Below, piece by piece: positions 3,020 to 34,600 of a stretch of DNA of 64,000 bases. The notes under the pieces are model-generated. The model saw only the letters and a list, made by a program, of their open reading frames with translations, searched no databases and was not told the DNA's origin. The stretch lies in NCBI GenBank assembly GCA_965222225.1, contig CBDCTK010000002.1, positions 1,120,001 through 1,184,000 of the forward strand, in the 5' to 3' direction. The DNA is from Candidatus Poribacteria bacterium. GTDB taxonomy: Bacteria > Poribacteria > WGA-4E > JAJDTR01. Within the stretch, counting starts at the first letter, position 1; the number at the start of each line of letters is the position of its first letter. The position numbers and the translations under genes were made by a program.

Positions 3020-4855
3020 ATGACAATTCAGCTAAAGCGCTATTGGATACTTGTAATAGCATTGCTAATCTTCACTTCGTCCAACCCCGTGCACGCCGCG
3101 TCTAGTTCCGAACCTGCCGACAAAGCGTTAAATGCTGATGTCGCTGAAGCGGATGAAGAGCAATCACCAAGTCAGTACATTGAGGTATCGATCCGCGGTC
3201 CGTACGCAGAGGTTAAATCCCCTTTCACATTCGGTCAAACGTTCAAGACAGTGCGAAGTTTGACATCTGAACTTGAGTTCATTCGGAAAAATGAGAAGGC
3301 AATTGGCGTGCTTTTGAAGATTGACAACCTTGGCGCCGGATGGGCAAAGCTACAAGAGATTCGAGACAAGATTATTCAACTCCGCCTGTCGGGAAAAGTG
3401 GTAATTAGCCATCTCAACAGTGGAGGGAACATGGAATATCTGATCGCTTGCGCCGGCGATCAGATATTCCTTAGTCCCTCCGGCACCGTTGGCTTAACAG
3501 GGCTTCGCGCAGAGGTGATGTTCTACGCCGGATTGTTTGAAAAACTGGATATCGAAGCAGAAATGATCGCTATGGGTAAATATAAATCCGCAATCGAGCC
3601 ATTCATGCAAGAGCGTATGTCCGAACCCTTTCGTGAAGCTGTTAATACCATCCTTGATGACCTGCATATTCAACAAATTGAGATGATTGCAGATGGAGGT
3701 GCACACCTTGATGCTGTAGCCGTAGAGAAACTTATTGACGAAGGGCCATTCACTGCACAGGAAGCACTTGAAAAGGGGTTAGTGGACGGTCTCCTATACT
3801 ACGACGAACTACTCTCTTCAATTCAAACTGAATCGGCTAAACCAATTGAGATAGTCTCAGACTACCGCAAGAAGTCCAAGGAGGTGCAGGATTTAACCGG
3901 AATTGCCGGATTAATGCGCCTGTTTTCTATGTTGTCGCCACCCAAGAAACACATTAAACCTTTGGGCACCCCACGAATTGCGCTCATTTATGCAACAGGT
4001 CCCATCTTATCGGATGTGCCGGATGGCCCTTTCAATATTGGACAGGTTATCACCTCTCGCGAAATCAGTGAGGCACTCCGTCAGGTACGCGCGGACGATT
4101 CTACCAAAGCCGCCGTAATTCGCATCGACAGTCCCGGAGGTTCAGCACTTGCTTCAGACCTCATCTGGCGCGAAGTTCTCTGGACCCAGCGCGAAAAACC
4201 TGTTGTCGTATCCATGTCGGATGTTGCCGGATCAGGCGGTTACTATATTGCAATGGCGGCAGGAACGATTGTCGCTCAACCGGCGACAATTACCGGATCG
4301 ATTGGAGTCTTTGGCGGAAAGTTCAATCTGAAAGGACTCTACAATAAGCTTGGGTTGACGAAGGAAGTTGTTACCCGCGGCAAGAATGCGAATATTTACT
4401 CCGATTATGGAAGTTTCACCCCAACCGAACGTGAACGGGTAGAAAAACTGATGAAAACGGTTTACGAGGATTTCGTTCGGAAAGCCGCTGAAGGCAGGCG
4501 TAAGACGAAAGAGGAAATTCATGAAATCGCGCAAGGACGCGTTTGGACAGGCAAACAAGCAAAAAACATCGGGCTTGTGGATGTGCTTGGAGGGCTCGAC
4601 ACAGCCCTTTCTCTTGCAAAAGCTAATGCCGGATTAAGGGACGATGATGAAGTCCAGATATTCGTGCTGCCTAAGCCGAAGACGTTCGTTGAGTTTCTTG
4701 TGGAAGATATGGAAAAAAACCTTAGAATTCCGCTAACTCCGGATTTGTCCGTCCCTGTCTCGCTCGCAACGTCACTATCGGCACTGTACCGACTTCTGTC
4801 ATTCGCAAACGGACCGGTCGCTACGGTCTTACCGGTTGATATCGTAATTAGATGA
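3020..4855 (+). CDS. sppA: Signal peptide peptidase SppA, long (67K, tandem S49 domain) type
   Basis: GKYKSAIEPF (Lys), RIDSPGGSALASD, SMSDVAGSGGYY (Ser), TITGSIGV, AQGRVWTG. Confidence 0.93.
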   Translation: MTIQLKRYWILVIALLIFTSSNPVHAASSSEPADKALNADVAEADEEQSPSQYIEVSIRGPYAEVKSPFTFGQTFKTVRSLTSELEFIRKNEKAIGVLLKIDNLGAGWAKLQEIRDKIIQLRLSGKVVISHLNSGGNMEYLIACAGDQIFLSPSGTVGLTGLRAEVMFYAGLFEKLDIEAEMIAMGKYKSAIEPFMQERMSEPFREAVNTILDDLHIQQIEMIADGGAHLDAVAVEKLIDEGPFTAQEALEKGLVDGLLYYDELLSSIQTESAKPIEIVSDYRKKSKEVQDLTGIAGLMRLFSMLSPPKKHIKPLGTPRIALIYATGPILSDVPDGPFNIGQVITSREISEALRQVRADDSTKAAVIRIDSPGGSALASDLIWREVLWTQREKPVVVSMSDVAGSGGYYIAMAAGTIVAQPATITGSIGVFGGKFNLKGLYNKLGLTKEVVTRGKNANIYSDYGSFTPTERERVEKLMKTVYEDFVRKAAEGRRKTKEEIHEIAQGRVWTGKQAKNIGLVDVLGGLDTALSLAKANAGLRDDDEVQIFVLPKPKTFVEFLVEDMEKNLRIPLTPDLSVPVSLATSLSALYRLLSFANGPVATVLPVDIVIR

Positions 4856-25621: not shown

Positions 25622-26621
25622 ACCCAAGTTGCTACCTAATTGAATTGAAAATCCCCGGGGTTTTCGTTAGAGTTGAGGAGTTCACTATTACCTCAATACC
25701 CTAAAGGAGAACCCATGGACATTCAAATTGTAACTGTTTTCTGTTTGTGTGACGCTCTCTTAAAAGCATTCAACCATCAACCAGACCCACAATCTCGGAT
25801 GTCTGATGCCGAAGTTATGACGACTGCACTGGTTGCAACACTCTTTTTCGGTGCCAACTTCCAAACCGCTCGTGACTTTCTCCAAACTCACGGCTATATT
25901 CCAAACATGCTCTCAAAGAGCCGGTTCAATCGACGGCTTCACCGAATTAAACCCATGTTCATCACACTGTTCGAAATCTTAGGCGAAAGTTTTGTACAAC
26001 TCAACAAGCAGAAACGCTATGCCGTAGATACTATACCAATTGTTGTTTGTGACAATTTCCGCATTCGTCGCTCAAAAATCTACACCAATGAAACATTTCG
26101 AGGCTATCAGTCGTCCAAACGTCGGTATTTCTACGGCTTAAAGATTCATCTACTGGTTACCGCTCAACGACAGCCGGTTGAATTCTTTTTGACCCCGGGT
26201 AACACCGGTGATGTTGAAGGCTTACAATACTTTGACTTCGACTTACCACCGGGCAGCCGTGTCTATGGAGACAAAGCGTACAATAACTACGATTAACTGA
26301 GCGAATAGCGAAGGCGATAGAAATTCCTATAGAAGACAGTATTGCCGAAGTTGGGGTGGAGTTGAAACCGATACGCAAGAAGAATTCAAAGCGGCAATAT
26401 CCACCATGGGAAGCCTATCTAGTCAATTATTATCGCAAGTCTGTTGAGACGACTGCGAGCTTGATTGAGAGGTTGTTGCCGCCTTCAATTCATGCGGTGA
26501 CACCACAGGGATTTGAACTGAAAGTCGTCTTGTTTGTAGTGGCTACCAGTATCAACCAATATGAACCCACTCAGAATTCACCCATATAGCCAATACCCGA
26601 TGAATAGGTAGCAACTTGGGT
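25622..26621 (+). mobile_element. IS982-family insertion sequence, 1000 bp
   Basis: 17-bp perfect terminal IR ACCCAAGTTGCTACCTA; 6-bp TSD TAATAT at 25616-25621 and 26622-26627; DDE transposase inside. Confidence 0.92.
25715..26589 (+). pseudogene. IS982-family transposase disrupted by an apparent 35-bp insertion at 26294-26328
   Basis: MSDAEVMT, SKSRFNRR, AVDT.PI, FYGLKIH, YGDKAY, then after the break IEDS...PIRKKNSK...RKSVET...HAVTPQGFELK in another frame. Confidence 0.85.
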
Positions 26622-29574: not shown

Positions 29575-30588
29575 TCATACATTCACCACTTGCCCTGTCT
29601 GATTAGATTGGATTGCCGCTTCCACAATCTCCAAACCACGCAAACCGTCCTGTCCCGTGACTAGTGGGATTTTGCCCTCTGCCAGTCGTTCTAGGAAGCA
29701 GTGGACATGATTTGTCAGAGAATCGTAAAAAGTGGTTTGGCCTTTGAAAAAGTTGGGACAAAAACGTTCAATGTGGTCGGGGTCTACCGACCAGAATTTT
29801 ACGGCTCTCATCACATCTTCAATTACTACTGTTCCCTTAGTACCACCAATCTCGGTCCATTCAGATGTCCGTGTCCAGCGCGGCACTTCCTGCCATCCCC
29901 CGATTAACGTGCCTAGAGCGTCTCCCTCAAATCGAAATGAAAAAGCAACGTCATGTGCTAGATCCGTTTCACCCCGCGGGCTAAAAGAGGCATGTATCGA
30001 ACGAATTTCGCCACAGAAGAAGCGCATCAAATCTATATGATGGATTAGGACGTTCCTTATTATTGAATGAGCCTTCAGGTCATTCTTCGATCCGGTAAGC
30101 GGTTCGGTCACGCGAATTACGATATACCGAATATCGCCGACTGCTCCTTCAGCACAGAGTTCTTTCGCTTTCAAATACCCAAATCCGAATCGACGGTTGT
30201 AATCAATCGCCAGATGTCGATTGTGTCGTGCGGCGGCATCGGCCATTCGTTGTGCATCTGTCAAAGTCGACGCCATCGGCTTTTCACAGAATACGTGACA
30301 ACCAGCTTCAACTGACTTGACTACGGGGGTCATGTGTAGGTGTTCTGGGGTTGCCACTGTGACAACGTCCAACCGTTCAGCTAACAATAATTCTTCCAAA
30401 TCATCATATACGTTTGCCCGGACCGGTGCAGCGACAATTTCTGCGCGTTTCGGTTCAACGTCACAAGCTGCTGCCAACTGGGCATGCTGAGATTGAACGA
30501 CTGCCTGCGCATGGAGTAATCCGATGGCACCGCAACCGACTACGGCTACGCGCAATTTTTCGTTCTGTAATCTCTCTGATTTCCCCAC
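29575..30588 (-). CDS. Gfo/Idh/MocA family oxidoreductase
   Basis: VGCGAIG, VATPEHLH, CEKP, NRRF. Confidence 0.93.
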   Translation of the reverse strand: MGKSERLQNEKLRVAVVGCGAIGLLHAQAVVQSQHAQLAAACDVEPKRAEIVAAPVRANVYDDLEELLLAERLDVVTVATPEHLHMTPVVKSVEAGCHVFCEKPMASTLTDAQRMADAAARHNRHLAIDYNRRFGFGYLKAKELCAEGAVGDIRYIVIRVTEPLTGSKNDLKAHSIIRNVLIHHIDLMRFFCGEIRSIHASFSPRGETDLAHDVAFSFRFEGDALGTLIGGWQEVPRWTRTSEWTEIGGTKGTVVIEDVMRAVKFWSVDPDHIERFCPNFFKGQTTFYDSLTNHVHCFLERLAEGKIPLVTGQDGLRGLEIVEAAIQSNQTGQVVNV

Positions 30589-30683: not shown

Positions 30684-30712
30684 AGAATATACTAACGCGA
30701 ACTCGCTGTCAA
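30684..30712 (-). promoter_or_regulatory. Sigma70-type promoter for the Gfo/Idh/MocA gene
   Basis: Minus strand TTGACA-17 nt-TATTCT. Confidence 0.6.
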
Positions 30713-30756
30713 GAATAATACCCCATGTTTCTCCTAGGGATTAAGCTTGATACACT

Positions 30757-31036
30757 CATAAGGATCAAGTTAAGCGTTTTAGGGCACAATTCACTTGGTT
30801 TCAATGTCTTAAACTGTTAGTCTCCATGCTAACTTGGAGAGGGAATTCTACCAATTCATTGATCTGCCCGCCTAAGAAGATCTTTCACAGCGCCCGTTTT
30901 CGTAGGGGCGGGGATCAAGCGACTGAACAAGGAGCGCGATAGAGATCCTTTCCCCGCTCAATAGGGACTGAGTAAGGGGTTTGTGGCGGAAAACCCGACC
31001 AAATACTAAACAAACTCTCTTAAGTTGATCCTTATG
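30757..31036. mobile_element. 280-bp non-autonomous MITE-like element with 18-bp TIRs and a 20-bp flanking direct repeat
   Basis: Left end CATAAGGATCAAGTTAAG, right end CTTAAGTTGATCCTTATG (17/18 complementary); GGGATTAAGCTTGATACACT at 30737-30756 and 31037-31056. Confidence 0.85.
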
Positions 31037-31046
31037 GGGATTAAGC

Positions 31047-31076
31047 TTGATACACTTCCTTCATCTCTGATATAGT
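31047..31076 (+). promoter_or_regulatory. Sigma70-type promoter toward the DUF2851 gene
   Basis: TTGATA-18 nt-TATAGT; the -35 box lies inside the duplicated 20-mer. Confidence 0.5.
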
Positions 31077-31361: not shown

Positions 31362-32795
31362 ATGATGACCAATCTAAAGAATATTAACGAAGATTTCGTT
31401 CAGAACATCTGGAATGATCAACGTTTTTTTGATATCGACCTCCGGGCGACAGATGGTAGGTCTATCAGCATATTGAAGGCTGGTATTTGGAATAGTGACG
31501 AAGGACCGGATTTTGTTCGCGCGGAAGTCATTATTGACGGACAACTTCAGGTTGGCGATATTGAGATTCACGTCAAATCGTCAGACTGGTATGCCCACGA
31601 GCATCATCTTAACCCGAGATACAATCGCGTTGTTCTGCATGTTGTCCACTGGGACGATGATTTGAACTTGCGCACACGTCTTCAGGACGGGCAAAGAATC
31701 CCAACCCTTGAACTCTTGAATCGGCTCAACACACCAATCGGAGATTTATTTGACGAAACAGAGGCGGCAAAAACGAGAACGGTCGACTTTTGCCGAGTGG
31801 CGGGGAAAATTCTCAAGATTGGACCGCTCAAATCAATCTTTGACGACCTAGGTCAGGAGCGGTTGATGGAGAAGGCCGACGCCATGAAGCATCTCCGCAT
31901 TCGGATGGACTTTGAACAATTGCTGTATGAGGGGATTATGGAAGCGTTGGGATACGCCAAGAATCGTGAACCCTTCCGGGAATTAGCCAGACGCGTTCCC
32001 TTTTCAGCACTTATCGGTAAGATTGATGAGGAGATTCAGGCCATCCTATTTGGAACGGCGGGACTGCTACCTTCGCAATCCCAACGTTCCACCGATCTGG
32101 ACAAATCCGACAGAATATTCATAAAGCGGCTAGAATCCCGCTGGAATGCATCCGAACAAGCGAGCATGCCAACCCGTATGGTTGCCGACCAATGGCAGTT
32201 TTCGAGAATACGTCCGGCGAACTTTCCAACTCGTCGGATTGCCGCTATTAGTCAGCTAATTGGAAACTGTCAAGAAAGCTTGATGATGGTCTACCTACCA
32301 ATTATTCTGCAATCGGCGGAGGCAGATAAAACAAGTTTGGGGAAGATTCGGCGACAGTTAGTGGAAAGATTAACACCCGTACCCAGCGGATATTGGACGG
32401 ATCATTGTAATTTTGGAAAACGGATTCCGCAAATCGGCGCAACTTTAATCGGAAAAAATCGCGCATTGGACATTATCGTCAACATATTACTGCCAATTGC
32501 GACAGTCTGGGCTGAGGAGTCACAAAGTACAACTTTGTACGAAGCGGTAATACGACTATACGGCAGTTGTCCGAAGTTGCAAGACAATCGCATCACTAAA
32601 CAAATCCAATCCCAAATTTTTAGCGACTTACAACCCTTTAACGTAATCTCGCCGAACTCAAAGATCCAGCAAGGTGCAATGTATCTTCACAATAACTTTT
32701 GCAGTAGCCGACTCTGCGATCTCTGCCCAATCATTAATGGCGGCGCCACCGAGGACTTGAGAGGAGAAACTGTCAAAGCGGCTGGCGTTAAATAA
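31362..32795 (+). CDS. DUF2851 family protein
   Basis: GIWNSDEGPDF, GDIEIH..SSDW..H.H, YNRVVLHVV, LGYAKNREPF, RPANFPTRRIA, C-terminal C....C..C. Confidence 0.88.
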   Translation: MMTNLKNINEDFVQNIWNDQRFFDIDLRATDGRSISILKAGIWNSDEGPDFVRAEVIIDGQLQVGDIEIHVKSSDWYAHEHHLNPRYNRVVLHVVHWDDDLNLRTRLQDGQRIPTLELLNRLNTPIGDLFDETEAAKTRTVDFCRVAGKILKIGPLKSIFDDLGQERLMEKADAMKHLRIRMDFEQLLYEGIMEALGYAKNREPFRELARRVPFSALIGKIDEEIQAILFGTAGLLPSQSQRSTDLDKSDRIFIKRLESRWNASEQASMPTRMVADQWQFSRIRPANFPTRRIAAISQLIGNCQESLMMVYLPIILQSAEADKTSLGKIRRQLVERLTPVPSGYWTDHCNFGKRIPQIGATLIGKNRALDIIVNILLPIATVWAEESQSTTLYEAVIRLYGSCPKLQDNRITKQIQSQIFSDLQPFNVISPNSKIQQGAMYLHNNFCSSRLCDLCPIINGGATEDLRGETVKAAGVK

Positions 32796-32830: not shown

Positions 32831-34600
32831 TCAAAGCAGTTCTTGGAGATATTGCACACGCGTGTGATGCCGCAACTTGCGAAGTGCTTCATCTTCGATC
32901 TGGCGCACCCTCTCGCGACTGATGCCAAGTTGTCGGCCAATTTCAGCCAAGGTATACTCTGTACCATCCGTCAATCCATACCGGAGTTTAATCACAAGGG
33001 TCTCACGCGGTGCCAATGTATTGAGCACTCTCTCAAGCGATTCCTTTTCCGAGACACAGAGTAGTTCCTCTTCCGGTGTCACCTGCGAATCATCTGCTAA
33101 CAGGTCCGAAACGGTCGCATCGGGTGACGCTTCACTCAATGGCGAATCCAGTGAAATTGTGCCTTTTGTGCTTTGTAAAATCTCAATTACGCGACTCTCA
33201 GGCATGTCGACTTTTTCGGCAATCTCCCTTATATCTGGTTCTCGCTCAAGATTTATTGCCAAGTTAGATTGCTCCTGTTTAATCGACCTCCAAGTTTCTC
33301 CTACGTAACATGGAATACGAATCGTTTGACTTTGCTGGTCAAGAGCGCGTTTGATTGCTTGCATCACCCACCATGTAGCATACGTACTGAAACGGTACCC
33401 TCTCTTCAAGTCGAATTTCTCGACAGCCTTCATTAGACCAATACTACCCTCTTGCATCAGATCGAGAAATGAGAGCGATGATTTGCTGAAATTGTGTTGT
33501 TTGGCAATGCTTGCAACGAGCAGCAAATTCGCTTCTACAATCTTCAACTCGGCGTCATGGACTTTCTGGGCAGCCGTTTGTAACTTACCCCACAATGCTT
33601 CAAGGTGCTCGCGTTCCTTAGCATGTACTCCTGCCGCTTGGGTACCCCGCGCATCCGGGCAGCGGTAAACTTCAATTGCTTGGCGAACCTCATCTAAGAT
33701 TGTGCCAAGATTCATTGGGCTCCACCACAATTCACTTCCTGATTGTTGTCTAGCCCCACGGCGTTTGTTTACCTTCGGACGTACCTCCGCCAGAATAGAT
33801 TCTGGAAGCTGATCTAACAACTCCGCCACTCCTGCCTTACCGTCTTCAAACTTTATGAAAAGATCTGCTTCTTCTTTAGGCTTAAGTAAGGGAGTACGAG
33901 CTATTTCTTGTAAATAAGAAAACGCTTCATCTCTTGTGCTGTCCGTACCATCTGGACGCTTCCGAAACGAGGAAATCAATTCATCCTCATTATCGTTGTC
34001 TGTATTACTATCTAAGCCGTCATTTGAGCCATCGGTTGGTGACACTGATAGAAAACCATCTTCCTCTTTCCCAGTTACGGGTCTATGGTTACTGACGGAA
34101 TTATTGTCAAAATCGGGACTGGGAGGCCCCGCAGTTGGCAACACAGCTAAAAAGTCCATGTCTTCTTTCTCATCCACGCCGTTGTTATCCCCAACTGAAC
34201 TATGGTCTAAACCTTCCTCAGAGGAAATCAATTCATCCTCATTATCGTTGTCTGTATTACCATCTAAGCCGTCATTTGAGCCATCGGTTGGTAACACTGA
34301 TAGAAAACCATCTTCCTCTTTCCCAGTTACGGGTCTATGGTTACTGACGGAATTATTGTCAAAATCGGGACTGGGAGGCCCCGCAGTTGGCAACACAGCT
34401 AAAAAGTCCATGTCTTCTTTCTCATCCACGCCGTTGTTATCCCCAACTGAACTATGGTCTAAACCTTCCTCACCTGATTCAGCAGTTGGCAACACAGCTA
34501 GGAAATCTGTGTCCTCCTTTTCATTCACGTCTAATGTTAGATCATGGTTGAACGAGTTATTGTTTATCATTCGCTCTACCAAGTTTTGTTTTGCTTTCAT
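32831..34600 (-). CDS. RpoD/SigA-like sigma70-family factor with a long acidic repetitive N-terminus
   Basis: Region 1.2 [49 protein letters not shown], region 4 [20 protein letters not shown]. Confidence 0.92.
33969..34472. repeat. Intragenic tandem duplication, 2 x 252 bp (84 aa)
   Basis: Copies 33969-34220 and 34221-34472; I see only two mismatches. Confidence 0.93.

Follow-up and report, generated by a model that had tools for sequence, protein, structure and literature searches.

Which enzyme moves a DNA element of 280 bp that has no gene of its own and is enclosed by a perfect direct repeat as long as 20 bp? The question is raised by a locus of a Candidatus Poribacteria bacterium (assembly GCA_965222225.1, contig CBDCTK010000002.1, positions 1,120,001 to 1,184,000); this stretch of 64 kb is hereafter called the window, and the positions given for it are counted from its first letter. 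The element occupies positions 30757-31036. According to our data, it is one copy of a family of miniature transposable elements with inverted repeats at their ends (MITEs) found, within the reach of our scan, in Candidatus Poribacteria; judging from its terminal sequences and from its targets, the family is probably moved in trans by a DDE transposase of the IS231/IS186 type, belonging to the IS4 family of insertion sequences (ISs), a reading to which we assign a probability of roughly 60%.

The ends of the element are inverted repeats of 18 nucleotides, complementary at 17 of 18 positions (94%) and retrieved by both the inverted-repeat and the 18-mer searches. The left arm (30757-30774, forward strand) reads CATAAGGATCAAGTTAAG, the right arm (31019-31036, read on the reverse strand) CATAAGGATCAACTTAAG, and 244 nucleotides separate them. 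Each arm is touched, with a gap of 0, by one copy of the 20-bp sequence GGGATTAAGCTTGATACACT, at 30737-30756 on the left and at 31037-31056 on the right, the two copies being identical in all their letters. With up to three mismatches allowed, this 20-mer occurs at two places in the window, against an expectation of 0.00 from 100 shuffles; the terminal 18-mer also occurs at two places, one per strand, against 0.08 expected, and in none of the 100 shuffles was it found twice or more. A chance origin of the repeats and of the ends is therefore excluded; the window holds a single copy of the element. The body, taken on the forward strand, is non-coding: no open reading frame (ORF) of at least 60 amino acids lies inside it, and the frames overlapping it (30725-30820, 30826-30942, 30915-31013, and 30709-30804) all measure 31-38 amino acids. 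A first-pass annotation, based on the letters of the window, had described a 280-bp non-autonomous element, a MITE, with 18-bp terminal inverted repeats, an abutting and perfect 20-bp target site duplication (TSD), and no internal ORF. Its measurements proved exact, with arms agreeing at 17/18; the absence of an ORF holds from 60 amino acids upwards, the longest frame having 38; and the assignment to the MITEs agrees with a short, non-coding element of which dispersed copies were found.

These copies came from a scan of 185,579 species genomes with the exact terminal 18-mer, in which the variable 13th position was left open (17 specified bases) and each match was fetched with 2 kb on either side. 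Fifty-two loci were obtained, the window's own locus not being among them. Thirty-one belong to seven Candidatus Poribacteria assemblies (18 in CAXXCS01, six in OZ240209.1, three in OZ244829.1, and one each in JAJDTR01, OZ242354.1, CBDDPW01, and OZ246960.1). The remaining 21 are spread over other phyla, with the match mostly inside an ordinary gene, and are unremarkable, since our own arithmetic from the size of the collection gives about 70 chance hits for a pattern of 17 specified bases. In the Poribacteria loci, conservation continues inward from the 18-mer and stops at the initial CAT, outside which each locus has a different sequence; the CAT must therefore be the true terminus. Moreover, most of them have a second, inverted end (with up to four mismatches allowed) at a distance of 145-456 bp.

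The window element is 75% identical over 277 nucleotides to the copy in locus L048, which corresponds to a full-length MITE lacking its last 6 bp, 84% identical over 161 nucleotides to that in L040, and 88% identical over 86 nucleotides to that in L038, these three loci all coming from Candidatus Poribacteria assemblies. The multiple alignment revealed that about 100 nucleotides on the left and about 60 on the right are conserved, and that the middle is variable and modular; a 36-bp internal module of the window element (30914-30949, forward strand) has no counterpart in the related copies L001, L017, L051, and L040. Fourteen copies of about 214 bp in CAXXCS01 share a mean pairwise identity of 97.3% (minimum 94.4%), which points to a recent amplification in that assembly. 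Hence, several attributes of a MITE family are present, namely a non-coding body (280 bp in the window, 145-456 bp in the family), terminal inverted repeats, copy-specific TSDs, and many dispersed copies; the family is new and comes from an uncultivated phylum.

Thirty-five pairs of inverted ends (33 from Poribacteria, one from a metagenome-assembled genome, MAG, of a Chloroflexia, and the pair of the window) were scored for a duplication by comparing the k bases preceding the left end with the k bases following the right end (matches minus three times the mismatches, threshold 8). Twenty-five pairs passed, with a length of 18 bp in two cases, 19 bp in two, 20 bp in 18 (12 of which are perfect 20-mers), and 21 bp in three, and the repeated sequences are unrelated to one another. 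As a control, left flanks were paired with right flanks taken from other loci, and of these 1180 combinations only 1 passed. This comparison shows the length of about 20 bp to be characteristic of the family, and we are all but certain that the 20-bp duplication is real and family-wide. The view that the 20-bp repeat of the window is a target duplication, advanced in the first-pass annotation, is thus borne out by copies elsewhere that carry 18-21-bp repeats of different sequence.

What the enzyme seeks in its target can be read from 17 reconstructed sites with 20-bp duplications, aligned after omission of the second copy in L047, whose site is common to the first. Positions 1-3 of the duplicated segment are G in 11, 10, and 8 of the 17 sites, and positions 18-20 are C in 9, 11, and 13. 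Just outside the segment a T followed by an A is found, on the left in 9/17 and 10/17 sites and on the right in 10/17 and 13/17; the base composition around the sites is 25% for each base. The resulting consensus, TA/GGG-N14-CCC/TA (slashes mark the borders of the duplication), is symmetric, as expected since a two-fold symmetric transposase complex yields such a pattern. The whole GGG-N14-CCC site being duplicated, each insertion leaves two potential targets, which fits the tandem arrays observed in two loci: L047 (2001-2310) has two elements and three identical 20-mers, L034 (1768-2449) has three elements, and in both the elements are parted by single copies of the 18-20-bp duplication. Unequal crossing-over of long repeats would be an equally fitting source of these arrays. 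Two further loci contain repeated structures, namely L016 (1805-2466), where a 448-bp tandem duplication carries the element, and L021 (1868-2619), where four exact ends and one variant end, spaced by 132-135 bp, look like an array of truncated units.

The likeness of the ends to those of IS186 and IS231 was tested on annotated records, over the first 18 nucleotides in register. The three IS186 copies of E. coli K-12 (IS186A, B, and C) have CATAAGCGCTAACTTAAG at both termini, with which the left and right ends of the window element agree at 13/18 and 14/18 positions, respectively; all three are flanked by a 10-bp duplication of the form GG-N6-CC, within GGGG-N6-CCCC. When plasmids were searched by tblastn with the transposase of IS186 as the query, an IS of the Parageobacillus toebii plasmid NZ_CP049704.1 came to light. 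Its left end, CATAGCCATCAAGTTAAG, agrees at 15/18 positions with the left and at 14/18 with the right end of the window element, and at 16/18 with the commonest other Poribacteria end (CATAGGG...); its duplication measures 11 bp (GGGGGAGTACC), and its transposase is 36-37% identical to IS231-type transposases. IS231C, on the B. thuringiensis plasmid NZ_CP114400.1, has the ends CATGCCCATCAACTTAAG and an 11-bp duplication (TGGCGGTACCC), and the right end of the window element agrees with its end at 14/18 positions, counted by eye. An end of the same type was found in an IS of Clostridium tagluense. ISApu1 and an IS4-family element of Natrinema have ends without the inner block (ATCAA-S-TTAAG in the MITEs), which implies that the signature is specific to the IS231/IS186 type and does not extend to the whole IS4 family. 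The probability of reaching at least 14/18 by chance is 4e-6 per in-register comparison, and that of reaching at least 16/18 is 2e-8. Furthermore, the ends of IS186 and of the P. toebii IS agree with each other at 12/18 positions, and the MITE ends are closer to each of them than that; the transposases of both these ISs score above the cut-off of the NCBIfam model NF033592 (IS4 family).

According to PMC2266710, 5'-CAT ends mark the IS231 and ISH8 subgroups of the IS4 family, IS231 has target specificity, IS231A transposes by cut-and-paste, and the hallmark of the family is a duplication of about one helical turn. The MITE family has both CAT-plus-inner-block ends and a symmetric G-run/C-run target, as the IS231/IS186 type does. 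With the members of the IS231 group, the MITEs share 5'-CAT termini that have the ATCAA-S-TTAAG block further inward (agreement at 14-16 of 18 positions, in register), a duplicated target with a G-rich start and a C-rich finish, and a symmetric target preference; with IS186 they have in common the initial hexamer CATAAG and the final eight positions of the ends, as well as the symmetry of the target. They differ from IS231C and from the P. toebii IS, which come from Bacillota, carry a transposase gene of 440-480 amino acids, and make 11 bp, whereas the MITEs are gene-less and make 20 bp (18-21). They also differ from IS186, which is autonomous, 1339 bp long, and makes a 10-bp duplication, and in which the four central bases of the end are different. 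The IS231 group reportedly includes non-autonomous derivatives, MIC231, that are mobilised in trans.

If this reading is correct, an IS231/IS186-type transposase encoded elsewhere in the genome would bind both CAT-terminated ends and excise the element. The ends would then be joined to two target phosphates lying 20 bp apart on opposite strands, at the slashes of TA/GGG-N14-CCC/TA, and the repair of the two 20-nucleotide gaps would produce the 20-bp direct repeat. The half-sites would be used as in the relatives, with a G-run opening and a C-run closing the duplicated segment, and a spacing of 20 bp against 10-11 bp would amount to about one further helical turn, on the same face of the DNA. 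We infer that the enzyme differs from its relatives in having strand-transfer sites about one helical turn further apart. As to whether an undescribed Poribacteria branch of the IS231/IS186 type attacks its target two turns apart, with GGG/CCC half-sites and a spacer of 14 bp against 5-6 bp, we consider the arguments evenly balanced.

The ends place the family beside a catalogued IS group, so that it is not categorically new; nevertheless, a 20-bp duplication class lies outside what is documented for the IS231/IS186 group. The first-pass annotation had allowed for the case in which the ends belong to a family already known for such duplications; this case does not apply, as the three relatives measured here make 10-11 bp. 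A literature search whose coverage left out ISfinder and most of the subscription journals retrieved no paper on MITEs in Poribacteria and none linking the target site duplication of a transposase with two helical turns; among the matches listed, which mostly concerned CRISPR target sites, no IS with a 20-bp duplication was present.

Several points weigh against an IS231/IS186-type enzyme. In the first place, the duplication of one helical turn (about 10 bp) typical of the IS4 family is not what the MITEs have, their duplications being of 18-21 bp with a mode of 20, and the link to that family is thin, as it is based on a similarity over 18 nucleotides of the ends and on a common target taste, with no protein behind it. 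In the second place, whereas a member of the IS4 family would encode, in a single ORF, a DDE transposase with the Y-2-R-3-E-6-K motif, Pfam recognised no transposase: not in the 15 ORFs on either side of the element in the window (17651-40281), not in 112 ORFs taken from the 31 Poribacteria loci, and not in the 17 ORFs, out of 93 listed for the 21 other loci, that adjoin the match. A tblastn search with InsL1 of IS186, covering the 52 loci and the whole window, reached an E-value of 0.28 at best. An autonomous partner with the same ends was not found in the window or in the 52 loci, that is, with exact 18-mers and 2 kb on each side, and a scan with the exact 18-mer, which is the CATAAGG variant, would miss a parent IS having CATAGGG at both ends. 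The search for further ends advocated in the first-pass annotation was, in this way, successful in part: it yielded copies, with TSDs of 18-21 bp, and no copy enclosing a transposase ORF. All the copies examined sit between ordinary housekeeping genes.

The duplications and targets also include cases that weigh on the same side. Ten of the 35 pairs remain below the strict TSD score. For L001, L014, L028, L029, and the middle one of the L034 copies, the 18-21-mers are degraded by an indel or by three or four mismatches, but still recognisable; the flanks of L040 agree at 14/20 positions by eye; and no duplication flanks L024 or L021, the latter being the end of a tandem array. Another of the ten, L043, had been mis-paired with an internal look-alike; on inspection by eye, its true ends are flanked by a 21-mer that has a single mismatch. 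In L031, the sole copy outside Poribacteria, the repeat is of 8 bp if exact and of 9 bp with one mismatch. Moreover, the sites in L015, L041, and L047 are paralogues belonging to a single repeated flank, and the independent targets are therefore fewer than 17.

The L031 copy is a 188-bp element at 2001-2188 of the locus, in the Chloroflexia MAG JBBQXW010000281.1, with nearly the same ends (0 and 2 mismatches), and its flanking repeat of 8-9 bp has the usual size for the IS4 family; it represents a single case.

Some other sources of transposase were considered and discarded. The unpaired ends in L018, L020, and L048 do not belong to full-length ISs, the adjoining ORFs coding for a methyltransferase, a VIT/VWA protein, and a pyridine-nucleotide oxidoreductase. 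The window contains a shortened ORF of 207 amino acids for an IS982-family transposase (25673-26296, forward strand), which scores 120.9 bits with NF033520, against a cut-off of 130 bits, and covers profile positions 1-163 of 243. The first-pass annotation had stated that the ends of the element differ from those of this nearby IS; in agreement with this, no matching end was found for the fragment within three mismatches anywhere in the window, and it was rejected as the source.

An enzyme with a long stagger from outside the IS4 family, such as an IS1202-family transposase, a Cas1 casposase, an IS30-type (IS1630) or an IS1634/IS1549-type transposase, is unlikely. In its favour, the searches of the window and of the loci gave no transposase, and long duplications are documented, in the two sources cited below, for the IS1202 and IS1634/IS1549 groups. 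The subgroups of the IS1202 family duplicate 5-6, 16-17, and 27-28 bp, in connection with indels of the transposase, and their ends start with TGT (bioRxiv 10.1101/2022.12.17.520857). The IS1202 family (ISAba32, ISTde1, and IS1202) offers a parallel to our reading, being a single DDE family with duplication classes about one turn apart; however, this is an analogy of mechanism and not of membership, since the MITE ends start with CAT and not TGT and there is no 20-bp class among its three, and the family was ruled out by these ends and by the 18-21-bp duplications. The IS1634 and IS1549 elements resemble the MITEs in having long direct repeats, but according to PMC2266710 these vary from copy to copy between 8 and 514 bp, whereas the MITE duplications have a fixed length of 20 ± 1-2 bp. 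No Cas1 was found among the ORFs scanned with Pfam (the window flanks, the Poribacteria loci, and the 17 from the other loci). The ends match IS231/IS186-type termini in register. Casposons with their Cas1, IS1549/IS1634, and IS1630 had been the long-stagger candidates of the first-pass annotation, and in this respect the ends point elsewhere, to IS231/IS186-type members of the IS4 family.

It is also improbable that an ordinary IS231-like transposase with a stagger of about 11 bp is at work and that the 20-bp spacing stems not from a changed enzyme but from some special property of the target or of the short substrate, for instance from a strongly bent, AT-rich centre. Positions 5-16 of the duplicated segment do contain 61% A+T against a background of 50% (summed by hand), and the L031 copy, outside Poribacteria, combines nearly the same ends with the 8-9-bp duplication; on the other hand, copies of 145-380 bp, differing inside, all give about 20 bp, and we know of no precedent for a MITE with a duplication unlike that of its parent.

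Lastly, it is scarcely credible that the 20-mers are no insertion duplication at all but belong to the element itself, form the core of a recombination site of the site-specific kind, or recur by chance. The window 20-mer does contain a near-palindrome around AAGCTT and does resemble the inner part of the ends, which at a first look hints at a structured site. Against this, the repeats of 25 copies fall into one length class with unrelated sequences, different copies have different sequences beyond the CAT, the chance expectation of the 20-mer is 0.00, and uninterrupted paralogues of a 37-bp repeat that is the target in L017, L036, and L040 hold the corresponding 20-mer once (weak evidence, the sites being paralogous); the diversity of the flanking repeats refutes this explanation on the present data.

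The repeat just mentioned is a dispersed sequence of about 36-37 bp that starts with GATCAAG, ends with GATCC, and is scattered through the Poribacteria loci. It was found at 30914-30949 of the window and in L004 (623-653), L014 (2311-2348), L016 (2079-2116), L017 (1640-1673 and 1731-1770), L020 (3140-3175), L029 (2037-2073 and 2231-2270), L036 (1961-1998), L040 (1964-1998), L041 (998-1032), L047 (1864-1899), and L051 (2219-2257); in L004, L014, L016, L017, L020, L029, L041, L047, and L051 the unit lies outside MITEs. In the window it falls within the MITE, at a place that is empty in L001, L017, L051, and L040, which gives the impression of an insertion. The final 20 bp of the repeat served as the MITE target, always in one register, in L017, L036, and L040, and the first bases of the repeat resemble the inner part of the MITE end.

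As regards its setting, the window copy lies in a spacer of 773 bp between two diverging genes, both pointing away from it: on the left, a gene for a GFO/IDH/MocA-type oxidoreductase (29575-30588, reverse strand; Pfam PF01408, E = 3.7e-31) and, on the right, a gene for a DUF2851 protein (31362-32795, forward strand; Pfam PF11013, E = 1.1e-79). A promoter-like site faces each of them, both recognised by consensus match only. That facing the DUF2851 gene (31047-31076, forward strand) consists of TTGATA, 18 nucleotides, and TATAGT, with 10/12 matches and a TG before the -10 hexamer, and its -35 hexamer falls inside the right TSD copy; that facing the oxidoreductase gene (30712-30684, reverse strand) lies to the left of the element. 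We infer that the window copy was inserted between two divergent promoters without destroying either, and, if the predicted sites are real, the long duplication may have kept the promoter on the right intact. The perfect TSD and the 17/18 agreement of the ends make a recent insertion plausible. Both ends have GATC at positions 8-11 (30764-30767 and 31026-31029), a motif conserved across the family in nearly all its members. Some members of the IS4 family have GATC sites in their ends through which Dam methylation controls transposition.

A different nature of the element was also considered. At gathering score, Rfam recognised no family anywhere in the window, and the single match obtained for the element in E-value mode, with a fungal snoRNA model (E = 0.84), was treated as chance; an RNA gene was therefore discarded, the strong fold (z = -4.4) being simply the pairing of the two ends. 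A plasmid or phage origin was rejected too, since blastn searches of 72,556 plasmids and of 50,697 phage records gave no match to the element.

Two further repeats were noticed in the window. Within the ORF 32831-34600 (reverse strand), positions 33969-34472 comprise a 252-bp direct repeat with 99% identity and a 99/153-bp sub-periodicity; it is in frame, with 84 codons per copy, and belongs to the N-terminal part of a sigma-70-type factor of 589 amino acids. At 3422-3481, within the ORF 3020-4855, there is a 26-nucleotide inverted repeat, 88% complementary, with a loop of 8 nucleotides.

The geometry of a transpososome can be read from how long its target duplications are, and the IS4 family includes the structurally solved enzyme of Tn5. 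If the family described here is indeed moved by an IS231/IS186-type transposase, the same ends and the same taste for half-sites, combined with a fixed stagger of 20 bp, would represent a natural experiment on the spacing of active sites or on the bending of the target; it would run parallel to the 5/16/27-bp series of the IS1202 family and would be, after the latter, the second lineage of DDE transposases with a stagger shifted by about one helical turn. In practical terms, the family would be annotated wrongly by software for finding ISs or MITEs that sets an upper limit of about 15 bp on duplications. As for the genomes that harbor it, 20-bp direct repeats can drive tandem amplification, as in L034 and L047, and the re-creation of the full target on both sides of each insertion, if the reading is true, would also explain the arrays in which element, repeat, and element follow one another.

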